Assembly (NCBI GenBank): GCA_036788815.1
Contig: DAIQMS010000004.1
Span: forward strand, 1-62,660
Origin: Bacillota bacterium
GTDB taxonomy: Bacteria > Bacillota_I > Bacilli_A > RFN20 > CAG-826
Reading direction: 5' to 3'
Length of the DNA stretch: 62,660 nucleotides
The notes under the pieces are model-generated. The model was not told where the DNA came from. It saw nothing but the letters and a program-made list of their open reading frames with translations, and did not search any database. Shown in pieces: positions 6,161 through 51,209 of the stretch. Position numbers and translations under genes: made by a program. Each line of letters starts with the position of its first letter. Within the stretch, counting starts at the first letter, position 1.

Positions 6161-6189
6161 TTGTGAAAAGGGGTGGGAATCCCTATAAT
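6161..6189 (+). promoter_or_regulatory. SigA-type promoter of greA
   Basis: TTGTGA-17 nt-TATAAT. Confidence 0.7.
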
Positions 6190-6223
6190 CAATCCCGTTA
6201 GAACGAGTGAGGAATTAACAATT

Positions 6224-6706
6224 ATGGCAGAAGATAAGATGATCATGACCAAAGATGGCATGGACAAACTCGAAAAAGAGTACCGCCATCTCATCGATGT
6301 TGAACGTCCGGACGTCATCGCAGCCCTTCAGGCCGCCCGCGCCCAAGGCGACCTTTCCGAAAACGCCGATTATGATGCGGCCCGCAATAGACAGGCCCAG
6401 ATCGAAGCCCGGATCACCGAGATCGAGCACATCAAAGACATCGCCGTCGTGGTCGAAGAAGGCAAGCAGGGCAAGAAGATCTCGCTCGGCAACCTCGTGA
6501 CCTACAAAGAGAAAGATGGTTCTGAAACGACCGTGAAGATCGTCGGCACCGTCGAAGCCGATCCCTTTGCCACGCCCTATCCCTTGATTTCGAATGAGTC
6601 CGCCTTAGGCGTCGCGCTTCTCGGCCAAGTCGCCGGCAGCTCGATCACGGTCGAAAGCGATGAGCCCTACGAGATTGAGATCGAAAAAGTCGAAGTCGCG
6701 AAGTAA
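6224..6706 (+). CDS. greA: Transcription elongation factor GreA
   Basis: ARAQGDLSENADYDAA, ISNESALGVALLG. Confidence 0.97.
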   Translation: MAEDKMIMTKDGMDKLEKEYRHLIDVERPDVIAALQAARAQGDLSENADYDAARNRQAQIEARITEIEHIKDIAVVVEEGKQGKKISLGNLVTYKEKDGSETTVKIVGTVEADPFATPYPLISNESALGVALLGQVAGSSITVESDEPYEIEIEKVEVAK

Positions 6707-6725
6707 CGATCATTGCTGATCAATT

Positions 6726-6754
6726 AAGGTTCCTTCGGGAACCTTTTTTATTTT
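6726..6754 (+). terminator. Intrinsic terminator after greA
   Basis: AAGGTTCC-TTCG-GGAACCTT followed by TTTTATTTT. Confidence 0.85.
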
Positions 6755-6755
6755 C

Positions 6756-6791
6756 TGGGGCACGAATGGCTTTTTCTTGCCTATGGATATG
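6756..6791 (+). promoter_or_regulatory. Conserved upstream motif, copy 1 (TGGGGCAC-N8-TTTTCTTG-N-CTATNGATATG), upstream of comEA
   Basis: Ungapped match to 35785-35820. Confidence 0.7.
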
Positions 6792-6804
6792 TGGAGGGAT
6801 CAGC

Positions 6805-7347
6805 ATGTTCAAAACCATCATTGCCATCATCATCACGACCGTCGTCGTCCTCATCATCATGGCCGTCGTCGACAAGACGACCGCCCAAATCGTGGATTCC
6901 ACGCCCACGAGCACAAGCCAAAGCGCGTCCGACAGCCTTCAGGTCACGATCACCGGCGAGGTCAATCACACCGGGACCTACCTCTTGGCCCTCAAATCGA
7001 CCCTCAAGGATCTCCTCGATGCCGCCGGGGGCGCCACCTCGAATGCCGATCCGAAGGCTTATGACACGAGCTTTCTTTTGGAGAACAAGGAAACTTTTTA
7101 CATCGCGCCGATCTATGATAACGGGAACACCTGCGCGGTCACGCCGATCAGCAAGGTCTGCATCAATACCGCCGATAAAACGGCCTTATTGGGCGTCAAT
7201 GCTTTCTCGACGACCATCGCGAGCGCGATCGTGAGCTACCGGGAAACGAATGGAGCCTTCAAGCGGATCGAGGATCTCAAGAACGTCTCCGGCATCGGCA
7301 ACGCCACCTTCGAGAAATGCAAAAACTACGTCAGCTTGACGGAATAG
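6805..7347 (+). CDS. comEA: Competence DNA receptor ComEA
   Basis: N-terminal TM anchor, SLBB-like VTITGEVNHTGTY and C-terminal HhH (INTAD...AIVSYRETNGAFKRIEDLKNVSGIG). SD GGAGG. Confidence 0.92.
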   Translation: MFKTIIAIIITTVVVLIIMAVVDKTTAQIVDSTPTSTSQSASDSLQVTITGEVNHTGTYLLALKSTLKDLLDAAGGATSNADPKAYDTSFLLENKETFYIAPIYDNGNTCAVTPISKVCINTADKTALLGVNAFSTTIASAIVSYRETNGAFKRIEDLKNVSGIGNATFEKCKNYVSLTE

Positions 7348-9401
7348 GCCTCGTTAGTTTCTTTTTCGCCCTCGTCAGCTTCGTTCTCGGGGCTTATTTG
7401 GCCTTCGATTTCCATTCGCCTTCGTGCGTCTTGATCTTCTTAAGCATCATCCCCTTTCTTTACGCCGCCTTTAAGCGGGGGAAGGGGAACGTCGTCGTCT
7501 TTCTCCTTTCTTTGGGGCTCGGGATTGGGCTCTTCAGCATCAAGATCCCGCCTCAGGAAGGGAAAGGGACCTACGAGGGCTTCGTCTTGGAGGCCCGGGC
7601 CAATTACTTTTTCTTCGTGAGCAAGGGAGTCCGTTATTACGTCGTCGAGAAAGAAAGCACCCGCGAAAAGGGTGATGTCCTCTCGATCGAAGGGAAAGCG
7701 GCGCCTTATGAAGGAACCGAGTACGAAAGCCGGTTCTCCTTCAAGGAATATCTCGCCAAAAACGGGATCAGCGATCAGCTGAGCGCCTACAAGATCACCG
7801 TGAAATTCCAGCTCCCTCTCCGGCTCCGGGCCAAGGAAGTGAGCTTTCTTTCCCATTTCTCTAAGGAAGGGGCGGACGCGATCGACGCCCTCCTTTTTAA
7901 CCATAAGGATTATTCCTCGAGCTTCATTCAGAAGGCCTCATCCTTGGGCTGCCTTTATTTCCTCTCGTTGTCGGGGCTCCTCTATGGGGGAGTTCTCCGA
8001 GGGAGTGAGAAGCTTCTTTCGCTGAAGCTCAAGGACAAACAAACCCACGCGATTTGTTGGGTTTTGGCTCTTTTGCTTTTGCCCTTTGGCCTAGGAAAAG
8101 CTGGCTTCTGGCGGGTCTTTCTCTCGAGGAGCTATCATCTCTACGCCGAAAGGAAAGGCCTGCGTTCGCCCCCTCATTTTTACGTCCTATCGATCCTCGG
8201 GATCGTGAGTCTTTTGCTCAATCGCTATTACGCCCTCGATAGCGGCTTTCTTTTGGGCTATGGCCTCTCCTTTGCCCTTTGCCTAACGAGGGGCGTCCTT
8301 TCCCGTTACCCGGGCAAAAAGAAGAGTCTCATGAGCTCCCTTTTCGTCCTCTTTTTCCTATTCCCGATGCTGGCGAATAAAGGGGCGCTCCATCTTCTCT
8401 CGCTTCTCTACTCGTTCCTTTTGATGCCTCTTGTCTATCCTTTCGCCTTCTTTTCTAGCCTTTCGTTTCTCACGCTTCCTTGGGTCAAATTCCTCAATGC
8501 TTATGCCCATGTAATTGTCGGTGTGGTCGATGTTTTCGAGAAGGTGGACCTCCTTATCCCCTTGGGGAATTGGAGCGGGCCCTTCACGATCGGTTACTAC
8601 TTTTTCTTCGGGGCGTTTTACTATTTCCGGGAGTTCAACGCCCGCTTGATCGAACGGCTCTTGCTCGGAGCCCTAAGCGGAGTGATCGGCCTCGGGGTTT
8701 TGCCCATCAGCAATGCGGTGAGTGGGGAAGTCTCCTTCATCAACGTCGGGCAAGGGGACGCGATTTTGATTCGGGATCGCTTCACCACGGTTTTGATCGA
8801 TACCGGAGGCTCGCTCTCCTTTGATTTGGCGGAAGAAGTCGACATCCCTTATTTAAGGAAGAATAGGATCTATAAAATCGATTATCTGATTGCGAGCCAT
8901 GGCGACTATGACCATATCGGAGCGGCCGCTTCCTTAAGCCAGCATTTTCATGTGAGCCATTACGTGACGGATAAAAATTCCTTCCCTTTAAAAGCGGGCG
9001 ATCTCACCTTCGTGAATTACAACCTTTGGGGCGGGGCGGAAGAGAACGAGGAGAGTCTCGTCCTGGGTCTTGATTTCCTCGGCAAGGAATGGCTTTTCAC
9101 GGGGGATGCTCCGATTTCGATCGAGAAGAAAATCCTTCAGGAATTCCCGGCGATCAATTGCGATATTCTCAAAGTGGGGCACCATGGCTCAAAGACTTCC
9201 TCGTCCTACGATTTTCTCAAGACTATCACCCCCGAAGTGGCGATCATCTCGGTCGGGAGGAAAAACAAATACGGCCACCCGAATGAGGAGGTGATTGAAC
9301 GGCTCACTTCGCTCGGGATTCCCATCCGGCGGACCGACGAGGAAGGGACGATCACCTACGAAACCTATTTCGGGGCGAAATTAGGGCGCGTTTCATCGTG
9401 A
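7317..9401 (+). CDS. comEC: Competence DNA-uptake channel ComEC/Rec2
   Basis: Multi-TM region followed by an MBL domain (INVGQGDA, IDTGG, SHGDYDHIG, FTGDA, KVGHHGS, GHP); follows comEA. Start codon uncertain. Confidence 0.9.
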   Translation: MQKLRQLDGIGLVSFFFALVSFVLGAYLAFDFHSPSCVLIFLSIIPFLYAAFKRGKGNVVVFLLSLGLGIGLFSIKIPPQEGKGTYEGFVLEARANYFFFVSKGVRYYVVEKESTREKGDVLSIEGKAAPYEGTEYESRFSFKEYLAKNGISDQLSAYKITVKFQLPLRLRAKEVSFLSHFSKEGADAIDALLFNHKDYSSSFIQKASSLGCLYFLSLSGLLYGGVLRGSEKLLSLKLKDKQTHAICWVLALLLLPFGLGKAGFWRVFLSRSYHLYAERKGLRSPPHFYVLSILGIVSLLLNRYYALDSGFLLGYGLSFALCLTRGVLSRYPGKKKSLMSSLFVLFFLFPMLANKGALHLLSLLYSFLLMPLVYPFAFFSSLSFLTLPWVKFLNAYAHVIVGVVDVFEKVDLLIPLGNWSGPFTIGYYFFFGAFYYFREFNARLIERLLLGALSGVIGLGVLPISNAVSGEVSFINVGQGDAILIRDRFTTVLIDTGGSLSFDLAEEVDIPYLRKNRIYKIDYLIASHGDYDHIGAAASLSQHFHVSHYVTDKNSFPLKAGDLTFVNYNLWGGAEENEESLVLGLDFLGKEWLFTGDAPISIEKKILQEFPAINCDILKVGHHGSKTSSSYDFLKTITPEVAIISVGRKNKYGHPNEEVIERLTSLGIPIRRTDEEGTITYETYFGAKLGRVSS

Positions 9402-9434
9402 TTCACCTCGGGCTTTATCCTATAATAGACAGGA

Positions 9435-10409
9435 ATGATTCAGTTACTTTTCTCGCCCCAGCCTCGGATGGTGAAGGGGGCCCTCAAAAAGCTCATGCAG
9501 ACCTCCTGCCCGAATCCCGACGCGATGAATTACGTCTCGTTCGATCTCGGGGTGACACCGCTTCTCGATGTAGCGAACGAATGTCTTTCCCTTCCTCTCG
9601 GGTATGATAAAAAGACCGTGGTGGCGGAGAATTGCTTCTTTTTGGAGAAAAGCCGCAGCAAGCCGAAATACCTCAAAGGCGATGATCCGAAAGCCTTCTT
9701 GGCCTACCTTCAAAACCCCGATCCGGCGATCGACCTTTATCTTTTGGCCTATAGCGATTCCCTCGATGAGCGGAGCGATTTCTTCCAGGCTCTTTTAGCG
9801 GATGGCGCCCGGATCAATCCGGTCAGCGAATTCTCGAAAGAGCAATGGCATGACTATATCGCCCGTTTCTTCGAGAAAAGGAACGTAGCCATCGAGCCGA
9901 TGGCAATCAACGAGATTCAGAATCGGATCGCCGGCGATTACGCCCGCTTCCTGAACGAAGGGCAGAAACTCGTCGCCTACAGCAATGGCGAGAAAATCAC
10001 CAAGGCGGTGGTGGAATCGCTCGTGAGCGAGCCGCTCGAGGATGATGCGTTCCGCCTTTCGAACGCTTTGACGAGGGGCGATGTGAAAAACGCGATTCGG
10101 ATCTATCAGGATCTCCGCGTCTTCTCGGCCGAGCCGATTTCCTTGATCCATCTTTTGGCGAATCAGTTCCGCTTCCTCAACGAAGTCCGTTATCTCCAGA
10201 GCTCGGGGTTAGGGAGCTCCCAGATTTCCGGGGCCCTTCAATGCTCCTCGATGCGGGTCTCCATCGCCCTCGATAATCTTCGTCGGATGGGGGAGGATTC
10301 CCTCAATAACGCCCTTGATGGCCTCTACGATTGCGAGGTCTCCATCTTGACGGGAAAGTGCGATCCCGACATGGCTTTCAGCCTCTATTTAGCAAATTTC
10401 ACCTTATGA
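9435..10409 (+). CDS. holA: DNA polymerase III delta subunit
   Basis: Position after comEC; DDAFRLSNAL, EPISLIHLLANQFR, DCEVSILTG. Confidence 0.9.
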   Translation: MIQLLFSPQPRMVKGALKKLMQTSCPNPDAMNYVSFDLGVTPLLDVANECLSLPLGYDKKTVVAENCFFLEKSRSKPKYLKGDDPKAFLAYLQNPDPAIDLYLLAYSDSLDERSDFFQALLADGARINPVSEFSKEQWHDYIARFFEKRNVAIEPMAINEIQNRIAGDYARFLNEGQKLVAYSNGEKITKAVVESLVSEPLEDDAFRLSNALTRGDVKNAIRIYQDLRVFSAEPISLIHLLANQFRFLNEVRYLQSSGLGSSQISGALQCSSMRVSIALDNLRRMGEDSLNNALDGLYDCEVSILTGKCDPDMAFSLYLANFTL

Positions 10410-13780: not shown

Positions 13781-14675
13781 AGATTCCCATCGACATGTAC
13801 TTGATGCCGCCATCGGGCGACACAGCCAATATTCTAAGCCCTTTAGGCGCATTTTCTGTAGCGATTTTTTCGGCGGCTAAAATCGCGGCCGCGCTCGAGA
13901 TTCCGAGGAAATAGCCTTTTTGGGCCAAAGCGTTGGCTTTGGCAATCGCGTCATCGCTCTTGATTTGGAGGATCTGATCCACCAAGCCTTTCTCATAGAG
14001 CGGCGGAACGAAATTGGCGCCGATGCCCTGAATCTTGTGGGGGCCGGCATTTCCGCCTTCAAGGACCGGCGATTCGGCCGGTTCGACGGCGATGGCTTTC
14101 ATCGACGGATAGGCTTTCTTTAAGACTTTGGCATTGCCAACGAGGGTGCCAGCCGTGCCAACGCCTGCGACGAAATAATCGAGGCCATCAGGGAAATCGG
14201 CAAGGATTTCCTTGGCGGTGTTCTTCTCATGGGCCCGGGGGTTCGCCTTATTCTCAAATTGGTTGAGGAAGACGTAGCCCTCTTTCTCCATCTCGGCGGC
14301 TTTCTTCTCGGCCCCGGCCATCCCTTCGGCTTTCGGCGTCAATAAAACGATGGCGCCATAGGCCTTCATGAGATTGATCCGCTCAAGCGACATGTTCTCC
14401 GGCATCACGATGGTGAGGGGAATGCCTTTCACCGCGCAGACGAGGGCGAGGCCGATCCCGGTGTTGCCACTCGTGCCTTCGACCGCTTTTTGGCCGGCTT
14501 TCCCGAGTTTGCCTTCCTTGATCAGGGTTTCGATCATCTCGAGGGCGATTCGATCTTTGATCGACATGCCCGGATTCATCATTTCCAGTTTCACATAGAC
14601 TTCATTGCCATTCAGCGTCTCCAGATGGACGACGGGGGTATGGCCGATTAACTCTAAGATACTTTCATGAATCAT
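13770..14675 (-). CDS. cysK: Cysteine synthase A
   Basis: IGHTPVV, KLEMMNPGMSIKDR (PLP Lys), TSGNTGIGLA, GVGTAGT, HKIQGIG. Confidence 0.95.
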   Translation of the reverse strand: MIHESILELIGHTPVVHLETLNGNEVYVKLEMMNPGMSIKDRIALEMIETLIKEGKLGKAGQKAVEGTSGNTGIGLALVCAVKGIPLTIVMPENMSLERINLMKAYGAIVLLTPKAEGMAGAEKKAAEMEKEGYVFLNQFENKANPRAHEKNTAKEILADFPDGLDYFVAGVGTAGTLVGNAKVLKKAYPSMKAIAVEPAESPVLEGGNAGPHKIQGIGANFVPPLYEKGLVDQILQIKSDDAIAKANALAQKGYFLGISSAAAILAAEKIATENAPKGLRILAVSPDGGIKYMSMGIYGK

Positions 14676-14747
14676 CGTTATTTCTCCTCACGCCTAAGCG
14701 CGCTATAATTTAGACACGAAAAAGGTTACAAGTAAAACGATACGGTA

Positions 14748-15692
14748 ATGGCATTTCAAAACAATCACGACGTCCGAATTCTTTATATGGGTACCCCAGC
14801 GATGTCGGCCCATGTCCTTTCGTCTTTGCTCGATGCGGGTTTCAATGTCGTGGGCCTCGTTTGCCAAGAAGACAAGGCCGTAGGCCGGGAAAAGACGAAT
14901 GAGGTTGTGCCGACTAAAGCGGTGGCTTTAGCCCATAACATCCCGGTTTTTCAGCCCCATAAAGTGCGGCTGGATTTCGAATTCGCCAAGACGCTTGATT
15001 TCGACGTGATCGTGACGATGGCCTATGGCCAGATCATCCCGCAAGGGCTTCTTGATCTCGCCAAAGTGGGCTCCGTCAATTTACACGGCTCCCTCCTTCC
15101 GAAATACCGCGGTGCCGCCCCGATTCAAAGGGCGATCATGGCGGGCGAGAAAGAAACCGGGGTCACCTTGATGGAAATGGTGGCGGCGATGGATGCCGGC
15201 AAGATGTACGACACGATCGCTTTCCCGATTCTCCCCGAGGATAACTACACCTCCGTTTGCGTTAAAATCTCCGATGCAGCCTCAAAACTCATCGTCAAAG
15301 ATCTTTTGGCTTATGCCAATAAGAATCTCGCGGGCGAAGAGCAGAAAGAAAAAGACGTCACGATCGCCAATAAGATCAAACCGGAAGATGAGCATCTCCC
15401 GTTATTTCTTTCCGCCGAAGGGGCCTTCAACTACGTCCGGGGATTGAGCGAAGAGCCGGGCGCTTACGTCCTCCTCAATGACAAAAAACTCAAAATCACG
15501 CGCTCCCACGTCGAGAATCACGATGTGATTCGGGCGGTTGGCGAGGTGATTCCGAACAAAAAGAAGCTATTGGTCCAGTTCTATGACGGCCAGCTTTCGC
15601 TCGATGAAGTCCAGCTCGAAGGCAAGAAGAAGATGGATGCCGCGAGCTTCCTCAATGGCGCTCATCTCTCCGGCCACGTTTTGATCAAGTGA
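14748..15692 (+). CDS. fmt: Methionyl-tRNA formyltransferase
   Basis: YMGTP, VNLHGSLLPKYRGAAPIQ, MDAG. Confidence 0.96.
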   Translation: MAFQNNHDVRILYMGTPAMSAHVLSSLLDAGFNVVGLVCQEDKAVGREKTNEVVPTKAVALAHNIPVFQPHKVRLDFEFAKTLDFDVIVTMAYGQIIPQGLLDLAKVGSVNLHGSLLPKYRGAAPIQRAIMAGEKETGVTLMEMVAAMDAGKMYDTIAFPILPEDNYTSVCVKISDAASKLIVKDLLAYANKNLAGEEQKEKDVTIANKIKPEDEHLPLFLSAEGAFNYVRGLSEEPGAYVLLNDKKLKITRSHVENHDVIRAVGEVIPNKKKLLVQFYDGQLSLDEVQLEGKKKMDAASFLNGAHLSGHVLIK

Positions 15693-15721
15693 ACTCCTAG
15701 GAGTTCGGCTATAATAACCTC

Positions 15722-18070
15722 ATGGCGGAAAAACGCTTTCTTTCTTTATCGGTTCACGGTCTCGTGGATTTTCTTTTGCGGAAAGGTGACATCGATTCCC
15801 GGATCTACAACCAGGAGACGATGCAGATGGGGACGATCCTCCATGCGGCTTTCCAAGAAAAACAGGGCCACGAATACCTTTCTGAATATGCCCTTAAAGA
15901 GACCTTTGAGCGCAAAGAAGGGGTGATCGCTCTTGAAGGGCGGGCTGATGGCATCATCGTCGGCGGGGATTTCCCGATCATCGACGAGATCAAAAGCACG
16001 GTGATTCCGCTTGAGGATTTCTATAACCAGCAAAAGGATTGGCACTTTGGCCAAGCCGAATGCTACGCCCTCATGTATCTTCACGAGACGGAGGGAGAGA
16101 AGTGCGCGATTCGCCTGACTTATCTCTCGCAAACCTCGAGCGAAAAGAAGACGGTGGAACGGCTTTTCGACCTTGGGGCCCTCGAAAAGGATGTCTATGG
16201 CTTGATGGATGAATATCTGGCCTTTTTCTCAAAGCAATTCGCCCATGAGGAACTCCGGAACCGCTCGGCCAAGAGCCTGGCCTTCCCCTTTGGGGGCTTC
16301 CGCAAAGGCCAGCGTGAAATGGCCAAATACGTTTATTCCATCGCCAAAAACGGGGGCACTTTCTATTGCGAGGCGCCGACCGGGATCGGCAAGACGATCT
16401 CGGCGCTTTATCCGGCGGTCAAAGCCTTCGCCGTCACCGACAATAAGAAGATCTTTTATCTGACCGCCAAAACGAGCGGCCGCTTGAGCGCTTATGACGC
16501 TTTGACCGCCCTTTATGCCAAAGGCTTCATGGGGCGGGACTCTTTGCTCGTCGCCAAAGATAAGATCTGCTTTACCCCCGGCGCCGCCTGCAATCCGGAC
16601 GAATGCCCATTCGCGAAAGGCTACTACGACAAGATCAAAAAGGCAATGGAAGAGGCCTGCGATGGGGGCTATCGGTTTGACGAAGAGCACGTGGTGGCTT
16701 TGGCCAAACATTACGCGATGTGCCCTTTTGAGCTCCAACTCGATCTCTCGCTTTGGAGCGATGTCATCATCGGCGACTATAACTATTTCTTCGATCCTTT
16801 GGTCCATCTGGAACGCTATTTCGATCCGGAGGTCGACAGCTCGAAGTTCCTCGTTTTGATCGATGAGGCCCACAACCTGGTCGAACGGGGGAGGGATATG
16901 TATTCGGCGAGTTTGTCCGCCGAGAGCTTCGCCCGGGCGAAAAAAGCCCTCCGGAGCCTCAAAGAGCCGAAGATCAAAACGGCCCTTGGCAAAGTCGAGA
17001 AACTTCTTCGGGATTACGATCTCGCCTCCAAAGGCCCGATCACGGATTTCGCCGCGGTCCCGCCTGAGGTGAAGAAGGCGCTTGATGCCTTCTCCAAAAA
17101 AGGCCAGGAGCTTATGAAAAAGGAACATCCGAAGCTTCCGGACATCTATAAGGAAGTGAGCCGCGAGGCCCATCGTTTTTCCTTTTTGTCGGAGAACTTC
17201 CCCGAAGATGAGACCCTTTATGGGGAGCGGGAGAAGACGGACTACGTCCTTCACCTTTCCTGCCTCGATCCTTCGCCGATGCTCTCTTCTTCCCTCCATA
17301 TCGTGAAGGGCCGAATCCTTTTCTCGGCCACCCTTTCGCCGATGAGCTATTACCAAGACGCCATCAGCGGCAATCATGACGATCCCTACCTCTTATTGCC
17401 CTCGCCTTTCCCGAAGGAGAACTTCGATCTCCTTTTGGCTCCGACCGTCTCGACCCGTTATAAGGACCGGAGCAAAACCTATAAGGATGTGGCGGAGTAT
17501 CTTTCCGCTTTCGTGAAGGGCAAATTAGGGAACTATTTCCTTTATTTCCCCTCATACGAATATCTCGAAAACATCAAGCCGCATCTTTCTTTTCCGGACG
17601 CGAATGTCTTTGAGCAAGAGAAAGAGATGTCCGATGAGGAGAAGTCGCTCTTCCTTTCGCGCTTTCTCTCCCATCCGGAGAAGACGACGATCGGTCTCCT
17701 CATCATCGGCGGTTCCTTCAGCGAGGGGATCGACCTCGTCGAGGACCGGCTGATCGGGGTTGCCGTGGTCGGGATCGGCCTGCCTCAGCTTTCGCACGAG
17801 AAGGATCTTTTGAAGGATTACTTCGCCAAAAAGAACGGCGAAGGCTACGAATATGCTTATATGAACCCGGGAATGAACAAGGTGATGCAGGCGGTGGGGC
17901 GCCTCATCCGAAGCGAGAAAGACCGCGGGGCGGCGCTTCTCATCGATGACCGTTATCTTCATAACGAGTATCGGGATCTCTTCGCCCGGCTTTGGACTTC
18001 GTATGACGTCGTCACCTCCCCGGAGGATGTCCAAAAGAACCTTCAGGAATTCTACAAGAAAGACTTTTGA
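15722..18070 (+). CDS. DinG/XPD-family Fe-S helicase with an N-terminal PD-(D/E)XK nuclease-like domain
   Basis: GRADGI...IDEIKS...QAECY; APTGIGKT; four-Cys region (ICF..CNPDEC...MCPFE); IDEAHN; EGID; QAVGRLIR. Confidence 0.88.
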   Translation: MAEKRFLSLSVHGLVDFLLRKGDIDSRIYNQETMQMGTILHAAFQEKQGHEYLSEYALKETFERKEGVIALEGRADGIIVGGDFPIIDEIKSTVIPLEDFYNQQKDWHFGQAECYALMYLHETEGEKCAIRLTYLSQTSSEKKTVERLFDLGALEKDVYGLMDEYLAFFSKQFAHEELRNRSAKSLAFPFGGFRKGQREMAKYVYSIAKNGGTFYCEAPTGIGKTISALYPAVKAFAVTDNKKIFYLTAKTSGRLSAYDALTALYAKGFMGRDSLLVAKDKICFTPGAACNPDECPFAKGYYDKIKKAMEEACDGGYRFDEEHVVALAKHYAMCPFELQLDLSLWSDVIIGDYNYFFDPLVHLERYFDPEVDSSKFLVLIDEAHNLVERGRDMYSASLSAESFARAKKALRSLKEPKIKTALGKVEKLLRDYDLASKGPITDFAAVPPEVKKALDAFSKKGQELMKKEHPKLPDIYKEVSREAHRFSFLSENFPEDETLYGEREKTDYVLHLSCLDPSPMLSSSLHIVKGRILFSATLSPMSYYQDAISGNHDDPYLLLPSPFPKENFDLLLAPTVSTRYKDRSKTYKDVAEYLSAFVKGKLGNYFLYFPSYEYLENIKPHLSFPDANVFEQEKEMSDEEKSLFLSRFLSHPEKTTIGLLIIGGSFSEGIDLVEDRLIGVAVVGIGLPQLSHEKDLLKDYFAKKNGEGYEYAYMNPGMNKVMQAVGRLIRSEKDRGAALLIDDRYLHNEYRDLFARLWTSYDVVTSPEDVQKNLQEFYKKDF

Positions 18071-18090
18071 GGAATCCCCCTTCTTTCTTT

Positions 18091-18121
18091 TTGACAAGAA
18101 AGAACGGAAATAGGCTATAAT
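18091..18121 (+). promoter_or_regulatory. Probable SigA promoter of lepA
   Basis: TTGACA and TATAAT are both perfect, but the spacer is 19 nt. Confidence 0.55.
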
Positions 18122-18136
18122 CGCTAAGGTAATTTT

Positions 18137-19954
18137 ATGCCCTTTGCTCAATCCCACATTCGCAATTTCTCGGTGATCGCCCACATCGATCACGGTAAAA
18201 GCACGCTTTGCGACCGAATCCTCGAAGACACGGGGGCGGTGGAAAAGCGCGATTTGAAGGAGCAAATGCTCGATTCGATGGACCTCGAACGGGAACGGGG
18301 CATCACCATCAAACTCAACGCCGTCACCGTCTCTTATACCGCCCACAATGGCGAGAAATACATCTTCAACCTGATCGACACCCCGGGGCACGTCGACTTC
18401 ACTTACGAAGTCTCGCGGAGCCTCGCCGCCTGCGAAGGCGCCCTTTTGGTCGTCGATGCGACCCAAGGGGTCCAAGCCCAGACCTTAGCGAACGTCTATC
18501 TCGCGGTTGATAACGACCTCATGATCATCCCGATCATCAATAAGATCGATCTTCCGAGCGCCCAACCCGAAGTCTGCAAAAAGGAAATCGAAGAGAGGAT
18601 CGGGCTTTCGACTGCCGATTGCTGCCTCGTGAGCGCCAAAACCGGCCAAGGGGTTCCCGACATGCTGGAGAAAGTCGTGGAGCTCGTTCCGCCGCCCTCG
18701 GGCGATCCGGACGCGCCCTTACAGGCCTTGATCTTCGACAGTTACTATGATTCCTATCGCGGCGTCGTCGTTTTGATCCGCATCAAAAACGGCTCGGTCA
18801 AAGTGGGGGATGAGATCCTTCTCATGGCGACCCACAAGAAATACCTGGTCACCGAAGTCGGCATCCGCACGCCGAAAGAGATCCCGACCAAAGAACTCGA
18901 TTGCGGCGAAGTCGGCTATCTCACCGCGACGATCAAGGATATCCACGATGTCTTCCCGGGCGAGACGATTACCTTGGCGAATAATCCGACCCCGGATCCT
19001 CTTCCGGGTTATCGGAAGATCAACCCGATGGTTTATTGCGGACTTTATCCGGTTGAATCGGCCGATTATGGCAACCTCAAAGACGCACTCGAAAAGCTCT
19101 CTTTGAACGATGCCTCCTTAACTTTTGAACCGGAGAGCTCCCAAGCATTGGGCTTTGGCTTCCGGGTTGGCTTCCTTGGCCTCCTTCATATGGACGTGGT
19201 CCAAGAGAGGCTTGAACGCGAATACAATCTCAACCTGATTCTGACCGCCCCATCCGTCAAATACCAAGTGGATTTGACTAACGGGACGACATTGACGCTT
19301 GATAATCCGTCCGAGATGCCTGATCCTTCGAAAATCAAAGACATCAAAGAACCGTTCGTGAACGCCTCGATCATGACCCCGAAGGAATTCGTGGGGCCGG
19401 TCATGCAGATCTGCCAGGATAAGCGCGGGGTCTACCAGGATCTCGTTTATTTCGATGACACCAGGCAAATCGTGAAGTACGACCTGCCGCTTTCGGAGAT
19501 TATCTTCAACTTCTTCGATAAGCTCAAGAGCGCGACCAAAGGCTACGCTTCCCTCGACTACGAACTCGCCGAATACCGGCCGAGCGATCTCGCCAAGATG
19601 GACATCCTCCTCAATGGCGATGTGATCGACGCCCTTTCGACCGTCGTCTATAAGCCCAGCGCCTATAACCGGGGCATCGCTCTCGTCCGCAAACTGAAGG
19701 AAATCATCCCGAAGCAGCAATTCGAAGTGCCAGTCCAGGCGGCGATCAATGGCAAAGTGGTGGCGCGAGCTGACATTCAGAGCGTTCGCAAAGACGTCTT
19801 GGCCAAGTGCTATGGCGGCGATATCTCCCGGAAGAAGAAACTGCTCGAAAAGCAAAAAGAAGGCAAGAAGCGGATGAAGGCGATCGGCTCGGTCGACGTC
19901 CCGCAAGAGGCTTTCATGAGCATGCTCTCGCTCGATGACGATTCGAACAAATAA
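18137..19954 (+). CDS. lepA: Elongation factor 4 (LepA)
   Basis: [36 protein letters not shown]. Confidence 0.98.
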
Positions 19955-23694: not shown

Positions 23695-23721
23695 TTAGCA
23701 CTTTGAAGTTGACAGTGCTAA
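23695..23721 (+). promoter_or_regulatory. CIRCE element 1 (HrcA operator) overlapping the -35
   Basis: TTAGCACTT-N9-CAGTGCTAA versus consensus TTAGCACTC-N9-GAGTGCTAA. Confidence 0.92.
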
Positions 23722-23736
23722 AACGCTGGTTATAAT
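23709..23736 (+). promoter_or_regulatory. SigA promoter of the hrcA-grpE-dnaK-dnaJ operon
   Basis: TTGACA-16 nt-TATAAT. Confidence 0.85.
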
Positions 23737-23740
23737 GGTG

Positions 23741-23767
23741 CTAGCACCAAGAGAAGGTGACTGCTAA
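23741..23767 (+). promoter_or_regulatory. CIRCE element 2
   Basis: CTAGCACCA-N9-GACTGCTAA, downstream of the -10 and just before the SD. Confidence 0.8.
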
Positions 23768-23781
23768 AAGGAGGCGGGACT

Positions 23782-35443: not shown

Positions 35444-35560
35444 GCTGGGATTATAGCATCGCAAATGCGGAAAAAGCATCTTTCCTACGGAATCATCTTG
35501 CAAAAACTCTCTCGCGCGATAGAATTAACACGCTGAAAAGTGGGAAGAAGGTGAGTTCCA

Positions 35561-35737
35561 ATGGCTGTCAAAACTGTGCTTCATGAGGGCGAATCCCTTG
35601 ATGATGCGATGCGTCGGTTCAAACGTTCGGTCAATAAGAGCGGCGTCCTTCTCGAATCCCGCAAAAGAGAGTGCTACTACAAGACGAACTTGAAGCGGAA
35701 GATGAAATCCGAAGCTGCACGTCGTAAAAAGTGGTAA
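35561..35737 (+). CDS. rpsU: 30S ribosomal protein S21 (not in the ORF track)
   Basis: Read by hand: [58 protein letters not shown]. Confidence 0.95.
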
Positions 35738-35751
35738 AAATTTGATTCGAT

Positions 35752-35783
35752 AAATCCTGAGGAAACTCAGGATTTTTTATTTT
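35752..35783 (+). terminator. Intrinsic terminator after rpsU
   Basis: AAATCCTGAG-GAAA-CTCAGGATTT followed by TTTATTTT. Confidence 0.88.
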
Positions 35784-35784
35784 G

Positions 35785-35820
35785 TGGGGCACAAAACGAC
35801 TTTTCTTGTCTATAGATATG
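35785..35820 (+). promoter_or_regulatory. Conserved upstream motif, copy 2, upstream of the C39 peptidase gene
   Basis: TGGGGCAC-aaaacgac-TTTTCTTG-t-CTATAGATATG; matches 6756-6791. Confidence 0.7.
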
Positions 35821-35821
35821 T

Positions 35822-37018
35822 GTGGAAACAATTTATCAAGGCGACGAAGAAGGATGTGGGTTAGCCTCCCTCCGGATGCTCCTCATTCTCGTCTCTCACG
35901 AGGCGAATTACCGCTATCTGACCCTCGAGGGTCATCCTCCTTATTCTTTAGAGGAACTCACTCGAGCGGCGGCCAAAGAGGGGCTTGGACTCAAGTTCAA
36001 ACGGGTCCAAAGCAAAGAGGACCTTGTCCATAACACCTCTTGGCCGATTCTCCTCCTCTACGGGAAGGAAGAGGACTCCCATTGCCTCGTGGCCGTCAAA
36101 AAGCGGGGGAGCAAGATTCTCATCGATGACCCTTCCGAAGGGAAAAGGTGGGAGTCCATTCCCGCGATTGAACGCCGATGGAACGGGATCTATGGCGAAG
36201 TCGTCTCCTATTTCGCGACCCGCTGCCCCTATAAGAAAAAGCGGGTCCCTCTCCCGGCGGGAATCGTCTTGGCCTCCTTTTTCGAGATTCTCTCGGAAGC
36301 GGCGCTGTACTTTGGCTTTTATAACGTCCAAAAGGATGCCGATTATCTTTATTCGGTCATTTTCTTCGCCCTCTTTGGCCTCTTTTCGATCATCAAGCGC
36401 TCGTTCGCGGTCTGGGGGATGAAAGCCTTCGACAAAGGCCACCTCGAATCGATCTATGATCCCGATCCCCATCGCTTAAGGAGTAACTACGAGCATTATT
36501 ACCGTTATAAGGCTCTCCTTTTCGGGGGTTGGATCGAATTCCTTTCCGCCCTTTTCTTCAGTTCCGCCCTCTTGGCCCTCGTGGGCTTCAATAGCCCGTA
36601 TTTCCTGGCTTCGGCCGGCGGATTTCTGATCTACGCCCTCTTCGAGGCCCTTTATTGGCGGAAGAATCTTCAAAAGGAGAAAAGCGCCCTCGAAAACGAC
36701 GAGAAAACGCTTTTTCTGTCGAAAGAGAGCGCCGATGAGAAGAAACGGAGCATCCTTTCGCTCAGTCAGAAGGCGTACCGGCTCGGGGATTACGTCTCCT
36801 ATTCCCAGGCGGTCCGCTTCGTCCTTTCCTTGGCCCTGGCCCTGATTCCGATGCTGGCTTCTCAGGCGATTTCCCTAAACTATTTCCTCTTTCACTTTTT
36901 CGCTCTCCTTGCAATCGGGGATGGCTTCGAAAAAGTGGTCTCTTTCTTCATGAAAGGACGGGAGAGAAGCCAGGAATTTGACTATTTCCTGGAATATTTC
37001 CTCAAAGAGGGCGAATAG
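35822..37018 (+). CDS. C39 cysteine peptidase domain + multi-pass membrane domain, no ATPase domain
   Basis: YQGDEEGCGLASL (Q...C), SHCLV (H), IDDPSEG (D), followed by several hydrophobic segments. No Walker A/B or LSGGQ. GTG start without SD. Confidence 0.8.
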   Translation: METIYQGDEEGCGLASLRMLLILVSHEANYRYLTLEGHPPYSLEELTRAAAKEGLGLKFKRVQSKEDLVHNTSWPILLLYGKEEDSHCLVAVKKRGSKILIDDPSEGKRWESIPAIERRWNGIYGEVVSYFATRCPYKKKRVPLPAGIVLASFFEILSEAALYFGFYNVQKDADYLYSVIFFALFGLFSIIKRSFAVWGMKAFDKGHLESIYDPDPHRLRSNYEHYYRYKALLFGGWIEFLSALFFSSALLALVGFNSPYFLASAGGFLIYALFEALYWRKNLQKEKSALENDEKTLFLSKESADEKKRSILSLSQKAYRLGDYVSYSQAVRFVLSLALALIPMLASQAISLNYFLFHFFALLAIGDGFEKVVSFFMKGRERSQEFDYFLEYFLKEGE

Positions 37019-37059
37019 GGATAACAAAAGGAGGCACAATGTGCTAATCTACTTACGCG

Positions 37060-37518
37060 ATGGAAGTTTGCTTTACCTCCCCCTTCGGGGCGGACTACGA
37101 TTACCTGGAAAGCCGTTACCGCCAGCTGGCGGAAGTGGCATTCTCTTATTTAAAAATCACCACGAACTACGAAGTCGATGTGTCGCTCGTGGACGACGAT
37201 ACGATTCATACGATCAATCGCGACTACCGCCATGTTGACAAAGTGACGGATGTCATCTCCTTCGCCTTCAACGACGACAAGGACCCTCATGACCAAATCA
37301 ACGATCCCTCCTTCGAGCGGATGCTCGGCGAGATTCTCATTTGTTTGCCCCAAGCCCAGCGCCAGGCTAAGGCGATCGGAAATTCCGAACGACGCGAACT
37401 AAGCTTCTTATTTGTGCACGGGCTCTTGCATTTGCTGGGGTACGACCACATGAAAAAGGAAGATGAGGAGGTCATGTTCCCCCTTCAGGACATCATCCTG
37501 GAGAAAGCGGGAGCGTAA
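37060..37518 (+). CDS. ybeY: rRNA maturation endoribonuclease YbeY
   Basis: NRDYRHVDKVTDVISF, FVHGLLHLLGYDH. Confidence 0.96.
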   Translation: MEVCFTSPFGADYDYLESRYRQLAEVAFSYLKITTNYEVDVSLVDDDTIHTINRDYRHVDKVTDVISFAFNDDKDPHDQINDPSFERMLGEILICLPQAQRQAKAIGNSERRELSFLFVHGLLHLLGYDHMKKEDEEVMFPLQDIILEKAGA

Positions 37519-37525
37519 AAACAGT

Positions 37526-37924
37526 ATGGATGAAAGCCAGTTGATCGATTGCGCGAAAGAAGCCCGCGAGCTCTCTTATTCGCCTTATTCGCATTTTGCG
37601 GTCGGGGCAGCCCTTGTCTGCACCGATGGTTCCGTTTACGTTGGCGCCAATGTCGAAAATTCGTCCTATCCGCTCTCGATGTGCGCGGAGCGCAATGCCG
37701 TTTATAACGCGATGATGGATGGGAAAACCACCGATGATTTCGTCGCTTTGGCGATCATCGCGGATACCGATGGACCTTGCTCGCCCTGCGGCGCGTGCCG
37801 TCAGGTCTTAAGCGAGCTTTTCCCTTCGGATGCCCCGATTTATCTCACGAACCTCAAAGGCGATGTGAAAACGACGAACGTCAAGGAGCTTTTGCCCTTC
37901 GCCTTTACCGGTGACGATTTATGA
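37526..37924 (+). CDS. cdd: Cytidine deaminase (homotetrameric type)
   Basis: SYSPYSHFAVGAAL, GANVENSSY, CAER, PCGACRQ. Confidence 0.96.
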   Translation: MDESQLIDCAKEARELSYSPYSHFAVGAALVCTDGSVYVGANVENSSYPLSMCAERNAVYNAMMDGKTTDDFVALAIIADTDGPCSPCGACRQVLSELFPSDAPIYLTNLKGDVKTTNVKELLPFAFTGDDL

Positions 37925-38817
37925 AGAGCGGATTTTGCGCGATCGTAGGGCGCCCGAATGTCGGGAAGAGCACCTTGCTCAACGCCCTTCTTTCCAAGAA
38001 AGTCTCGATCGTCTCGCCTAAACCGCAGACGACCCGTGACCAGATCATCGGGATCTATAACGAAAAGGATCTCCAGATCGTTTTCATCGACACCCCGGGG
38101 CTTTTCGAAAGCGAAGAGGCCCTCGATAAGGCGATGAACAAAGCCGCCCGCGGCTCGCTCGCGGACATTGATTGCCTTCTCTATTTGATCGATGCCTCCG
38201 AAGAAACGTATGATGACGATGACAAAGTCTTATCGACGATCCATTCCGATAAGCCTTGGATCCTCACTTTCAACAAGATCGATTTGGCGGATGCCGCGAT
38301 GATGGAAAAGATCACCGCCCATTTCAAGACCCTTTATCCGAAGGCGGAGCAGCTTCAGCTTTCCGCCCTCACCAACTTCGGCCTCAAAGACGTGAAAGAT
38401 ACGGTGGCGAGCCATCTTAAGGAAGGCCCCCAATACTATCCGGAAGGCGAAGTGAGCGACAAAGACCATGCGTTCATGGCCAAAGAGATCGTCCGCCAAG
38501 AGTTACTGCATTTCCTCAAACAAGAAGTTCCTCATCAATCGGCTGTTTACATTTCTTCCTTCAAGGAAGACAAGGAGACGGCGAAGATCTCCGGCGTGAT
38601 CTATGTCGAAAAAGAAACCCAGAAGGGAATCGTGATCGGACACGGAGGCGAAATGATCAAGAAGATTTCCATGTCCGCCCGCCACGAATTGGAGCGGATG
38701 TGGCAAAAGCACGTGATTCTCGTTTTGGAAGTCGACTATTCCGCCAACTGGCGGAATGACGTCGCCAAACTCAAGAAACTCGGCTATGGAGCAAAGAATG
38801 ACGAGGACTCTGACTGA
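37921..38817 (+). CDS. era: GTPase Era
   Basis: GRPNVGKSTL, PQTTRD, DTPG, NKID, KH domain GIVIG. Confidence 0.97.
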   Translation: MKSGFCAIVGRPNVGKSTLLNALLSKKVSIVSPKPQTTRDQIIGIYNEKDLQIVFIDTPGLFESEEALDKAMNKAARGSLADIDCLLYLIDASEETYDDDDKVLSTIHSDKPWILTFNKIDLADAAMMEKITAHFKTLYPKAEQLQLSALTNFGLKDVKDTVASHLKEGPQYYPEGEVSDKDHAFMAKEIVRQELLHFLKQEVPHQSAVYISSFKEDKETAKISGVIYVEKETQKGIVIGHGGEMIKKISMSARHELERMWQKHVILVLEVDYSANWRNDVAKLKKLGYGAKNDEDSD

Positions 38818-39526
38818 CGTCGAAGGCTACGTAATCCATTTATCAGCCTACAAAGATAATGATTCGATGGTGACGGTCTATTCTTCGGAAGGATCGGTCT
38901 CATTTTTGGCGCGGGGAATCCAAAAGACAACCTCCAAAAACGCGGGATCCTGCCAGCTTTTGTCCTATTCCCGTTTTTCGCTTGAGGTCGGCAAGAGCGG
39001 CGGCTATTCCCTCAAGGAAGGGATTTCGCTGAAGCCGATTGACGGCCGCGATAATCTCGAACGCCTGACCGCCTTCTCCTTTCTGGCGGAAATCAGTTCC
39101 AAGCTCATCCAGGAAGACGAGGTCAAGGAAGCCTATCCTTGGCTCAAAGGCAGTTTGGATGCCCTCGAAGGAAATGCCGATCCTTTCAGCGTTTCGCTGA
39201 TTTATTTCGCGCATTTGCTTGTGATCGGCGGATATGGCCTCGATGTCGATGAGTGCATCTATTGCCAGTCGAAGAGCAATATCAAAGGCGTCTCTTATAG
39301 CGATGGCGGCTTTGTTTGCGCGAACGAGATGGATGAAGGGGCGACCCCTTTGGACGCCCGGCATCTGAAGATCCTGCGCTACATTTTCCGCTGCGGCGTC
39401 GCCGATATCCGACGGGTGGCGTTCGCCAAAGAGGAATGCCAGGGATTCTTCCAGAGTCTATCGCAATATTTGGCCGATTTGACCGGGGTCGAACTCAAAA
39501 GCATCGATCTCCTCTTAAAGGCTTGA
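38798..39526 (+). CDS. recO: DNA repair protein RecO
   Basis: Position after era; YKDNDSMVTVY..EG, LARG, CIYC Zn site. Confidence 0.88.
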   Translation: MTRTLTDVEGYVIHLSAYKDNDSMVTVYSSEGSVSFLARGIQKTTSKNAGSCQLLSYSRFSLEVGKSGGYSLKEGISLKPIDGRDNLERLTAFSFLAEISSKLIQEDEVKEAYPWLKGSLDALEGNADPFSVSLIYFAHLLVIGGYGLDVDECIYCQSKSNIKGVSYSDGGFVCANEMDEGATPLDARHLKILRYIFRCGVADIRRVAFAKEECQGFFQSLSQYLADLTGVELKSIDLLLKA

Positions 39527-42904: not shown

Positions 42905-42929
42905 GCGCTTAATGAGAAGGAACAGAGTT

Positions 42930-44524
<1,595 letters not shown>

Positions 44525-44525
<1 letters not shown>

Positions 44526-45541
44526 TGAAGAAAAAAGCAACAGGGCTCGAAGCGGCCGAGGCCTTCTTCCTTGAGCAAGCTCAGGGAAAAGGCTCGATCG
44601 ATCAGAACTTTTTGCTCGATGAAGCCGATGACTTTCTTTTAAGCGAGGAGGAATTCGAGAAACTCAGCGATTTCCTTTCGGCCCACAAGATCGCCATCCG
44701 CGACGACGAACTGATTCCAAACGAGAAGCCGCTTCAGGTTTCTTCGAGCGATCCGTTCCGTCTTTATCTTTCGCAAATGGGCCAATTCCCGCTTCTCTCC
44801 AAGGATCAGGAAATCGAGCTCGCCAAGAAAATCGCTCAAGGGGACCTCGAAGCAAAGAACGCTTTGATCAATAGCAACCTCCGGCTCGTCGTTTCGATTG
44901 CCAAGCATTATGCCAATAGCGGCGTTCCGATCCAGGACTTGATCCAGGAGGGGAACATCGGTTTGGCTCATGCGGCCGAAAAGTTTGACTACACCAAAGG
45001 TTTTAAGTTTTCGACTTACGCGACGTGGTGGATCAAGCAAGCCATCACCCGGGCGATCGCCGATCAATCCCGCAACATCCGGATTCCGGTCCATGTCGCC
45101 GAGACTTTGACCAAGATCAACCGCTCCCGCCACGAATTGGCGCAGAGTTTGGGCCGGGAAGCCACCGACGAAGAAGTGGCGGCCGCGCTCAAGATGCCGA
45201 TCGAAGACGTCCGTTATTATGCTTCTTTGCCGCTCAGCACGACCTCTTTAGACGCCCCGGTCGGGGATGACGAAGGGGACGAGATGAGTAATTTCGTCGC
45301 CGATCCGAGCGAGAACGATACCGATACGATCGACGTCGAGGACGATTTGGGGCTGATCTCCAAAGGAATGTCTTCTCTCAATGAGCGGGAGCGGAACATC
45401 ATCGTTCAGCTTTTTGGCCTCACCGACGGGGAGAGCAAATCCCTCGAAGAGGTCGGGGCCCAATACGGGCTCTCGCGCGAAAGAATCCGCCAAATCCGCG
45501 ATGGCGCCTTAGCGAAAATGCGGAAGGAACTCAAAAAATGA
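44525..45541 (+). CDS. Second RpoD-like (group 1/2) sigma-70 factor
   Basis: [79 protein letters not shown]; TGATG overlap with rpoD. Confidence 0.93.
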
Positions 45542-47844: not shown

Positions 47845-47898
47845 GGCTCTATTATCGCCAGTGATGAATAAAATTGCAATTTCCTCTATAATGTCGGC

Positions 47899-50162: not shown

Positions 50163-51209
50163 CTTGTTGATCTCTTCGACCAAAGCATCATAAATCTGGC
50201 TATCATCGACGGTTTTCAGGACTTCGCCTTTTTTGAAGATGGCCCAGACCCCGTTGCCTCCGGCCGCTCCGAGATCGGCGTGGCGCGCTTCGCCAGGCCC
50301 GTTCACGATGCAACCCATGACGGCGACGGTCTTATTGATATGATGTTCTTCGAGATAGGCCAAAATCCGTTTGGCCAATGGGATCAGGTTCACTTCGGTT
50401 CGGCCACAGGTCGGGCACGAGATGAACGTCGGATAATCCTCTTTTAAGCCGAGATCATGAAGGAGGCGATTGGCCGCTTTGATCTCTTCTTCGGGCTCAT
50501 CGCTCAAGGAAATGCGGATCGTATTGCCAATCCCATCGAGCAAAAGCGGGGCAAGTCCCGCCGAAGAACGAATCAGGCCGATGTCTTTCGGGCCGGCTTC
50601 GGTGATGCCGAGATGGAGCGGATAGGGGAAGCGCTCGCTGGCCGCCCGATAAGCGGCAATCGTGCTCCGGACATCGCTGCCCTTTAAGGAAAGAACAATA
50701 TCATAAAAGCCCATATCTTCGAGGATTTTGACATGCTTAGCCGCACTTTCGACGAGCAGATTCCCGTGGATGATGTCTTTCCCGTAATAGATCGTTTTGT
50801 CCAAGCTGCCGGAATTCACGCCGATCCGAATCGGAGCGTGGTGGGCTTTGCAGGAATCGACGACCGCTTGAATCGCGCTCACGCTGCCGATGTTGCCGGG
50901 ATTGATCCGGACCGCATCGACGCCGGAATCGAGGGCCGCCAAAGCGAGCCGATAATCGATGTGGATATCCGCGACGAGCGGCACTTTGGTTAGGGTCTTA
51001 ATCGTCTTGATGGCTTCCGCATCTTTGAAATCAAGGACGGAAACCCGCATGAGATCGGCTCCTAAGGCCGCGCAGCGGTTGATTTGATCCGCCACCTCCT
51101 TGGCTTTCTCCGTCTTGATGTTGCACATGCTCTGAACGAGAACTCGATCCTCGCCTCCGAGAGTCAGGGAGCCGATGGCGACACTATGTGTCGAATTGCG
51201 TTTGGTCAT
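50157..51209 (-). CDS. ispG: HMBPP synthase IspG
   Basis: VQSM, VADIH, RINPGN, RIGVNSGSL, HLGITEAG, CPTCGR, MGCIVNGPGEA. Confidence 0.96.
   Translation of the reverse strand: MTKRNSTHSVAIGSLTLGGEDRVLVQSMCNIKTEKAKEVADQINRCAALGADLMRVSVLDFKDAEAIKTIKTLTKVPLVADIHIDYRLALAALDSGVDAVRINPGNIGSVSAIQAVVDSCKAHHAPIRIGVNSGSLDKTIYYGKDIIHGNLLVESAAKHVKILEDMGFYDIVLSLKGSDVRSTIAAYRAASERFPYPLHLGITEAGPKDIGLIRSSAGLAPLLLDGIGNTIRISLSDEPEEEIKAANRLLHDLGLKEDYPTFISCPTCGRTEVNLIPLAKRILAYLEEHHINKTVAVMGCIVNGPGEARHADLGAAGGNGVWAIFKKGEVLKTVDDSQIYDALVEEINKL

Follow-up and report, generated by a model that had tools for sequence, protein, structure and literature searches.

What signal stands in front of the DNA-uptake genes comEA and comEC in a bacterial lineage known only from metagenomes, and why does the same signal recur in front of a C39-peptidase gene? 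To our knowledge, the control of competence genes is understood only for a few cultured models (ComK, ComX, sigmaH, Sxy/CRP and TfoX). The DNA considered here, referred to as the window, is the whole stretch of 62,660 nt that was analysed (DAIQMS010000004.1, positions 1 to 62,660, forward strand; GCA_036788815.1; Bacillota bacterium, CAG-826), and outside the units described below it is a housekeeping region with gene order as in Bacillus. Its relatives are MAGs labelled Bacilli or Bacillota bacterium, with farther relatives labelled "Erysipelotrichaceae bacterium RUG" and "Candidatus Enteromonas"; their fetched loci carry L-numbers (L101, L113 and so on), and orthologous loci were obtained by DNA pattern and protein look-up. 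Scans of genome and metagenome contigs gave no match to the window itself. The right end of the window (50719-62660) is matched at 99.4% identity by the JGI contig Ga0554530_0003226 (L161), which shows that public metagenomes contain the window's species; this contig continues past the window with rsfS, an ABC permease, an xerD-like gene, dinB, dxs, xseB/A and nusB.

The first site lies between greA and comEA and comprises the following features.

6173-6706: greA (Pfam).
6726-6754, forward strand: intrinsic terminator of greA, a hairpin (6726-6745) with a T-tail that supplies the T-run opening the 48-mer discussed below.
6757-6793, forward strand: box copy 1, beginning GGGGCAC and spanning -36 to the predicted +1; GGGCAC 6758-6763 (-35 to -30), N8 6764-6771, TTTT 6772-6775, CTAT 6781-6784, GATA 6786-6789.
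G6793, forward strand: transcription start predicted from geometry.
6793-9401, forward strand: comEA-comEC unit (Pfam HHH_3/SLBB and Lactamase_B; homologues named ComEA and ComEC relatives).
6805-7347, forward strand: comEA, starting with ATG, with a Shine-Dalgarno sequence (SD), GGAGGGA, at 6793-6799, at the predicted mRNA 5' end.
7317-9401, forward strand: comEC (Pfam Lactamase_B).
9421-10409, forward strand: holA (Pfam), ATG at 9435, with its own TATAAT (9421-9426) 8 nt before the ATG, of leaderless type.

The second site follows rpsU.

35561-35737: rpsU, with a canonical TTGCAA-N16-TAGAAT promoter at 35498-35525.
35752-35783, forward strand: intrinsic terminator of rpsU, a hairpin (35752-35775) with a T-tail.
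35786-35822, forward strand: box copy 2, beginning GGGGCAC; GGGCAC 35787-35792, N8, TTTT 35801-35804, CTAT 35810-35813, GATA 35815-35818; orthologous copies in L001/L097, L118, L119, L121 and L123.
G35822, forward strand: +1 predicted from geometry, the first base of the GTG start codon.
35822-39526, forward strand: operon of the C39 gene, ybeY, cdd, era and recO (Pfam).
35822-37018, forward strand: PCAT-like C39 peptidase/TMD gene, 398 aa, GTG start, predicted leaderless, without SD.
37060-37518, forward strand: ybeY (Pfam).
To 37924, forward strand: cdd (Pfam).
37921-38817, forward strand: era (Pfam).
To 39526, forward strand: recO (Pfam), the last gene of the operon.

The sequence-only reading of this DNA had aligned 6744-6791 with 35773-35820 without gaps at 40 of 48 positions, placed five of the mismatches in one 8-nt spacer, and set both copies directly 3' of the terminator of a housekeeping gene (greA, rpsU) and before a new unit. 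All three observations are borne out: the sequences are as quoted, a repeat search of the window (family D17) extends the match to a gapless 50-nt pair (6744-6793 vs 35773-35822) with 42/50 = 84% identity, direct reading of both sites puts five mismatches inside the spacer, and hairpins and Pfam assignments agree on the setting. What needs trimming is the length of the box. The leading ~12 nt of both copies (TTTTTTATTTT) are the T-tails of intrinsic terminators and are therefore not independent evidence for a shared box, so that a real conserved part of ~37 nt, (G/A)GGGCAC-N8-TTTT-N5-CTAT-N-GATA-N3-G, is left of the 48 bp first proposed. Without the T-tails the pair is identical at 29/36 positions, a match expected ~0.02 times window-wide in an all-against-all comparison and ~2e-4 times among the window's intergenic DNA. 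With up to 3 mismatches allowed, the pattern TGGGGCAC-N8-TTTTCTTG-N-CTAT-N-GATATG matches the window at exactly these two sites; 100 shuffles that preserve dinucleotides yield no match. Together with the conservation in relatives described next, these figures lead us to reject chance similarity of the copies.

At the C39 locus, comparison of five species whose C39 proteins are 66-76% identical to that of the window leaves (G/A)GGGCAC, CTAT and GATA unchanged and the 8-nt spacer scrambled, with variable columns numbering 0/14 in the core vs 12/14 in the spacer (Fisher p 6e-6, five species). CTATnGATA-N3-(GTG/ATG) is retained in L001/L097, L118, L119, L121 and L123, and even in front of a C39 orthologue of 47% identity GGGCCA-N16-CTATAGATAggtATG is still present. 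At the comEA locus the species at 83-84% identity retain AGGGCAC-N8-TTTT-N5-CTAT with small changes in GATA, and the copy at 75% identity reads GGGCAA...CTATtAGAA; GGGCAC and CTAT overall persist at 75-84% protein identity, and at 67% only TGGCTC...CTATgTATG is found. The box fades between 75% and 57% ComEA identity, and the family-level relatives (ComEC 36-45% identical, L002-L019) have a CTAT-like -10 block directly before the SD without GGGCAC, some of them with a GGC core at -35. The earlier proposal of a link between comEA and the C39 gene through a common box, and of conservation upstream of comEA orthologues, holds across the genus: the signal precedes the DNA-uptake genes in the window and in the orthologous loci L113, L115 and L158/L159.

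Other origins of the similarity were considered. A structured RNA or known RNA family was rejected, as scanning the window and three loci against Rfam at the gathering threshold found no known family; a tRNA search of the three loci was likewise empty. For a mobile or viral origin, viral contigs contained no match to the box, though two instances lie on islands with restriction-modification (R-M) and recombinase genes. A literature search for the motif found nothing relevant.

The arrangement of the conserved blocks is that of a promoter. GGGCAC and CTAT are separated by N17 in 13 instances and by N16 in L123, and the box shows the general layout of the sigma70 family, with two short elements ~17 bp apart, fixed orientation and a predicted start 5-8 nt past the second element. 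The register is provided by the C39 gene, whose start codon (GTG in four species, ATG in two) falls exactly 3 nt after GATA in 6/6 orthologues; in the window an in-frame TAG lies just upstream of this start, and the catalytic motif begins at residue 6. The same start codon stands 6 nt after CTATNG in the six orthologues, as in the leaderless-type sigmaA genes of the same genomes, which have TATAAT-N6-ATG (DinG-like helicase, cshB-like) or TATAAT-N8-ATG (holA). This shared placement therefore sets CTATNG at the TATAAT position and GGGCAC at -35 to -30. In this C39-based numbering CTATNG occupies -12 to -7, TTTT -21 to -18, and the G or A of the start codon is +1; TG usually stands at -15/-14 (G at -14 in 11/13 and T at -15 in ~9/13 instances). 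In the members that have an SD, the purine-rich run (GGAGGG, GAGGAGG and similar) begins at the predicted +1 position, even where the start codon is far away or absent (L111, L147, L148, L101), as would be expected for the first transcribed bases.

Taken together, these features suggest a -35 element GGGCAC, a 17-bp spacer with a T-tract at -21 to -18 and usually TG at -15/-14, and a -10 region CTATnGATA, with transcription predicted to begin at the purine that lies 4 nt past GATA. The start sites of the box-driven units are inferred from this geometry, and the resulting mRNAs would be leaderless, as for the PCAT-like C39 gene, or would begin with the SD, as for comEA, whose predicted 12-nt leader would open with it. 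The view that the two conserved blocks around a variable spacer resemble a promoter, put forward on first inspection, agrees with their canonical -35/-10 positions and their constant orientation and distance to the SD or start codon.

Leaderless translation seems to be routine in this lineage. Genes of leaderless type, with TATAAT 6-8 nt ahead of the ATG and without an SD, occur in the window at 9421-9437 (holA), 15707-15724 (DinG-like helicase) and 47884-47901 (DEAD-box helicase); holA and the helicase keep this arrangement in four or five species, and for holA it is shared by L113, L115 and L158. Since holA has its own sigmaA promoter, this essential gene is independent of the box promoter, and its separate promoter is consistent with conditional expression of the comE unit.

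The alternative that the box is not a promoter at all, and is instead the site of a repressor or other DNA-binding protein (an operator, or a recombination or uptake-related site), would account for a conserved 3' block, TGTCTATnGATAaGTG, that is longer than a typical -10 element and for the DNA-metabolism theme of the genes concerned, as in SOS-type regulons. We consider it highly improbable: the box has no dyad symmetry on direct reading, every instance strictly keeps its orientation towards, and its distance from, the gene that follows, no other promoter lies between terminator and start for comEA or the C39 gene, and the leaderless C39 start needs a promoter exactly here. The box is very probably a promoter, one that would co-regulate comEA-comEC, the C39 operon and other units.

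In the genus, 13 high-scoring instances were found, and more distant relatives carry degenerate copies at the same loci; membership was read from the fetched stretches, and comG, comF, dprA, recA and coiA lie outside all of them. All instances are co-oriented with the downstream gene, with conserved blocks and variable spacers. A 42-nt position weight matrix (PWM) built from these 13 instances themselves gives bimodal scores over ~290 kb of lineage DNA on both strands, the instances at 47-61 bits and everything else below 14 bits, without any looser copy at or above 14 bits. The 9 kb that follow the window on its right contain no copy, and none lies near dinB or xseAB. When genome and metagenome collections were scanned for the exact pattern, most of the matches were due to chance and were filtered by context; the others were genuine copies.

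One of the further units is rpsF-ssb-rpsR, where the box directly follows the lysS terminator in two species (L147; L111/L154/L155) and is absent in two of the four species examined (L152/L153, L156/L157). There it stands in tandem, ~95 nt upstream of a sigmaA-like TTTGCT-N18-TATAAT promoter, which is the pattern of an additional, conditional promoter. The proposal that further copies would be found at competence or recombination genes is borne out in part by this locus and by recO in the C39 operon, and is weakened by the two species whose ssb locus has no box. Other observations at the locus concern its surroundings: after the sigmaA-like promoter runs a conserved leader of ~100 nt (L147 reverse strand, oriented 1719-1960; L154 10968-11210), whose sequence tatgaccgcc...cacatactcttatggtcacacgc is shared across species and which has no Rfam match in L111; in L152 a Tn7-like module (TnsB-type HTH, TniB, TniQ; 14198-18802) is inserted downstream of rpsR; and in L152/L153 a gene for a 227-aa membrane protein lies between lysS and rpsF, the position of the box in other species.

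In two genomes the box precedes a small gene divergent from type III R-M mod/res genes (L110 12404-12805, 133 aa; L148 6443-6661, 72 aa). The two products share 30% identity (E 7e-8) and have no Pfam or PADLOC match, and their neighbours include a large serine recombinase in one genome and a DUF262-like gene in the other. The small protein is a candidate controller or restriction-alleviation factor. A further instance, with a leader of ~85 nt, precedes an AlbA_2/HATPase_c_4/winged-HTH gene (L101 424-4358) followed by a gene for a 656-aa protein with a weak PIN_4 match; the AlbA_2 gene may encode a regulator belonging to the regulon or may serve in defence. Neither the R-M-linked small gene nor the AlbA_2/HTH gene is a classical competence gene, which counts against reading the set as a competence regulon.

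This distribution also bears on whether the box could be an ordinary constitutive promoter variant, the two window copies resembling each other because a terminator-promoter cassette was copied, by gene conversion or duplication, and then inherited. Most copies do directly follow terminators, in one genome the spacers of the two copies are more alike (L113 AGGGCACaaaaggctTTTTCC vs L118 AGGGCACaaaagcctTTTTCC), and the ybeY-era operon needs expression during growth. Against such copying, the spacers of the two window copies have diverged (5/8 differ) while their blocks are identical, and the same contrast of block and spacer recurs in the five-species orthologues and at unrelated loci, including mobile R-M islands; housekeeping genes of the same genomes use canonical TTGACA/TATAAT promoters, and the PWM scores are bimodal. 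A constitutive variant is thus very unlikely, and a co-regulating promoter continues to be the reading that we prefer.

The unit behind copy 2 is larger than first described. The C39 gene does come first, as reported, in what proves to be a five-gene operon that also contains housekeeping ybeY, cdd and era, and within it no terminator or sigmaA-type promoter was found above chance. As ybeY and era have no other recognisable promoter, either the box is active in growth or read-through from rpsU feeds them. The same gene order surrounds the C39 operon in relatives, and the C39 gene lies between rpsU and ybeY in all loci examined. The ybeY SD, GGAGG, lies 25 nt from the listed ATG (37060; window 37026-37060), and translation may in fact begin at a GTG at ~37045, 6 nt past the SD.

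The product of the first gene has an N-terminal C39 domain (PF03412, Pfam) in which Cys12, His87 and Asp103 are invariant and Gln6 near-invariant in an alignment of 15 sequences. A structure model (pLDDT 84, pTM 0.70) matches the peptidase and transmembrane domain of PCAT1 in Foldseek (TM 0.72, E 2e-13, ~465 columns); a PDB profile search with the protein sequence also gives matches to PCAT1, and the peptidase domain matches ComA as well. No ABC_tran domain was found by Pfam, and the protein ends after the last membrane helix. As modelled, it is a PCAT-like peptidase with an exporter membrane domain and without an ATPase domain. It resembles the PCAT1/ComA exporters in joining a C39 domain with the Cys/His/Asp triad to an ABC exporter transmembrane domain, and differs from them in having no nucleotide-binding domain and in being confined to this lineage, to which all 38 detectable homologues (380-424 aa) belong.

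Is this, then, a competence regulon? The box-driven set suggests a small DNA-handling regulon, possibly for competence, which would join comEA-comEC, the operon ending in recO, rpsF-ssb-rpsR in some species and R-M-linked genes. Competence proper is a plausible label, although the odds lean somewhat against it. It is favoured by a conserved core of comEA/comEC with recO and sometimes ssb included, by an ssb box that adds to a sigmaA promoter, and by the independence of holA from the comE promoter. In pneumococcus DpnA is competence-induced, and by analogy the R-M-linked small proteins are candidate factors that would shield incoming DNA from restriction; the R-M-adjacent genes in this way recall competence-induced protection of such DNA, which likewise speaks for the label. 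So does Listeria sigmaH, which shows both a housekeeping operon in the regulon and a promoter distance of ~20 nt (PMC4754846). The label is weakened by the normally essential ybeY and era without another visible promoter, by the patchy membership of ssb, and by dinB and xseAB without a box. A strictly competence-induced promoter in particular fits poorly with an operon of ybeY, cdd and era that has no sigmaA promoter of its own.

Which protein might read the box? A consensus scan finds no sigmaA promoter between terminator and gene at either site, and canonical TTGACA/TATAAT promoters are common elsewhere in the window. The box itself was rejected as a sigmaA promoter, having GGGCAC and CTATNG/TATNGA instead of TTGACA/TATAAT (A at -11, T at -7, 16-18 bp apart), and its standing as a promoter class distinct from the housekeeping sigmaA promoters, as judged from these motif comparisons, is well supported. 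Among the canonical promoters, the one before hrcA-grpE-dnaK-dnaJ (window 23700-23780) is overlapped by a CIRCE-like inverted repeat, TTAGCACT-N9-AGTGCTAA, which is ordinary heat-shock control.

The window also contains, after dnaG, tandem genes for principal-type sigma factors (42912-45541), sigA (537 aa) and an overlapping 339-aa paralogue. The latter, sig2 (44522-45541), is 42% identical to sigA, lacks region 1.1 and keeps the YATWWI.QAITR (-10) and RERIRQ (-35) reading residues of SigA; the pair is conserved in L118, L119, L121 and L123. Since its DNA-reading residues equal those of SigA, sig2 would leave GGGCAC unexplained, and it was rejected as the reader of the box.

Either of the two sigmas could nevertheless serve if the box were a weak extended -10 promoter (TGnnTATnGA) helped by a class II activator bound at GGGCAC(AAA), a form of ComK-like control. 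The frequent TG of the instances (T at -15 in ~9/13, G at -14 in 11/13) and the TAT core of the -10 block fit this arrangement, as does GGCACA, which matches TTGACA at 3/6 positions and lies 17 bp from TATnGA; region 3.0 and the RERIRQ -35 helix are retained in both principal-type sigmas, and the roughly 70 kb of this genome that were read showed no gene for an alternative sigma. Three features tell against it. The -35 block is only 6-7 bp long and sits exactly at -35 to -30, which is typical of sigma region 4 and not of a dimeric activator site; the -10 block is without T at -7 in every instance; and conservation runs through GATA and GT to +1, which is unusual for sigmaA promoters. We regard the activator as rather unlikely but as a serious rival, more so than the constitutive promoter or the non-promoter site.

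A dedicated regulator, most probably an alternative sigma factor of the ECF/sigmaH-like type, would account for the short and exactly placed -35 block, the invariant motif and the tiny regulon, and for these reasons we lean towards an alternative sigma as the reader. A small DNA-transaction regulon under such a dedicated regulator is, on balance, the explanation that we favour for the data as a whole. The more specific scenario, in which an alternative sigma or an activator of this small-genome genus reads GGGCAC-N17-CTATnGATA as a new signal and runs a competence-like programme combining uptake with SSB, RecO, an ATPase-less PCAT-like double-glycine peptidase translated from a leaderless message, and R-M-linked small proteins, is possible but rather doubtful.

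In this lineage, a cis signal unlike the known ones is shared by the genes for DNA uptake, by ssb and recO, by restriction-linked genes and by the gene of an unusual peptidase/exporter-like protein. As a searchable motif it lends itself to delimiting the regulon, to a search for the regulator by phylogenetic co-occurrence and to following promoter use in existing metatranscriptomes, and the predicted starts would document leaderless and minimal-leader mRNAs as a regular feature of the lineage.

Known systems resemble this signal to differing degrees. ECF-type sigma factors recognise promoters such as GGAAC-N16-17-TCTRA/CGTC, and in both cases the -35 is G-rich and ends in AC, the spacer measures 16-17 bp, the short -10 includes TCT, and a very small regulon has near-invariant motifs, a resemblance that we take as a lead only; the box differs in having CAC for the hallmark AAC and a conserved block that extends past the 5-nt -10, and no ECF sigma/anti-sigma pair was seen near any copy. 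The sigma54 pattern TGGCAC-N5-TTGC has no match in the window, and its GG and GC lie 10 bp apart, whereas GGCAC and TTG(C/T) of the box are 13 nt apart. The K-boxes of ComK in B. subtilis activate comE, comG, comF, ssb and recA, and many box spacers carry AAAA-N4-TTTT, a pattern missing in 5/13 instances; however, a K-box consists of a pair of AAAA-N5-TTTT boxes, helically spaced and lying ahead of a sigmaA promoter, and the window contains no such pair (8, 18 or 31 bp apart), nor does either site contain a single AT-box.

The cin-box, or com-box, is the streptococcal late competence signal that drives comEA/EC, ssb and many accessory genes. Like it, the box described here is a dedicated, specific signal centred on the -10 with a T-rich stretch upstream, standing before comEA/EC, ssb and accessory genes, and the ComX (sigmaX) regulon is likewise small, its motif matching either fully or not at all, and is likewise linked to double-glycine (C39) peptidases. 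It differs in that the cin-box TACGAATA and its one-mismatch variants are absent from both intergenic regions (6650-6830 and 35700-35850) and in that the box has a strong -35, GGGCAC; the available sequence showed no ComX-like gene. These scans uphold the initial statement that the motif matches neither the ComK box nor the cin-box.

The sigmaH competence promoters of the non-sporulating Bacilli Listeria, S. aureus and L. sakei are comparable in that an alternative sigma drives comE and comG from very close by, in Listeria from only 19-22 nt (PMC4754846). Both of their elements and the spacing are unlike the box: a regex scan for the sigmaH motif (RNAGGAWWW, about 11-14 bp, RNNGAAT; in Listeria AAAGGATTT-N11-GGCGAAT, PMC4754846), including Listeria AAAGGATTT and GGCGAAT, found none at either site. 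In Listeria sigmaH also drives the housekeeping operon LMRG_00908-dnaG-rpoD (PMC4754846), and a mixed regulon of com and housekeeping genes therefore has precedent. Set beside these systems, the box would represent a familiar kind of regulon whose signal for com genes is specific to this lineage, and not a new principle.
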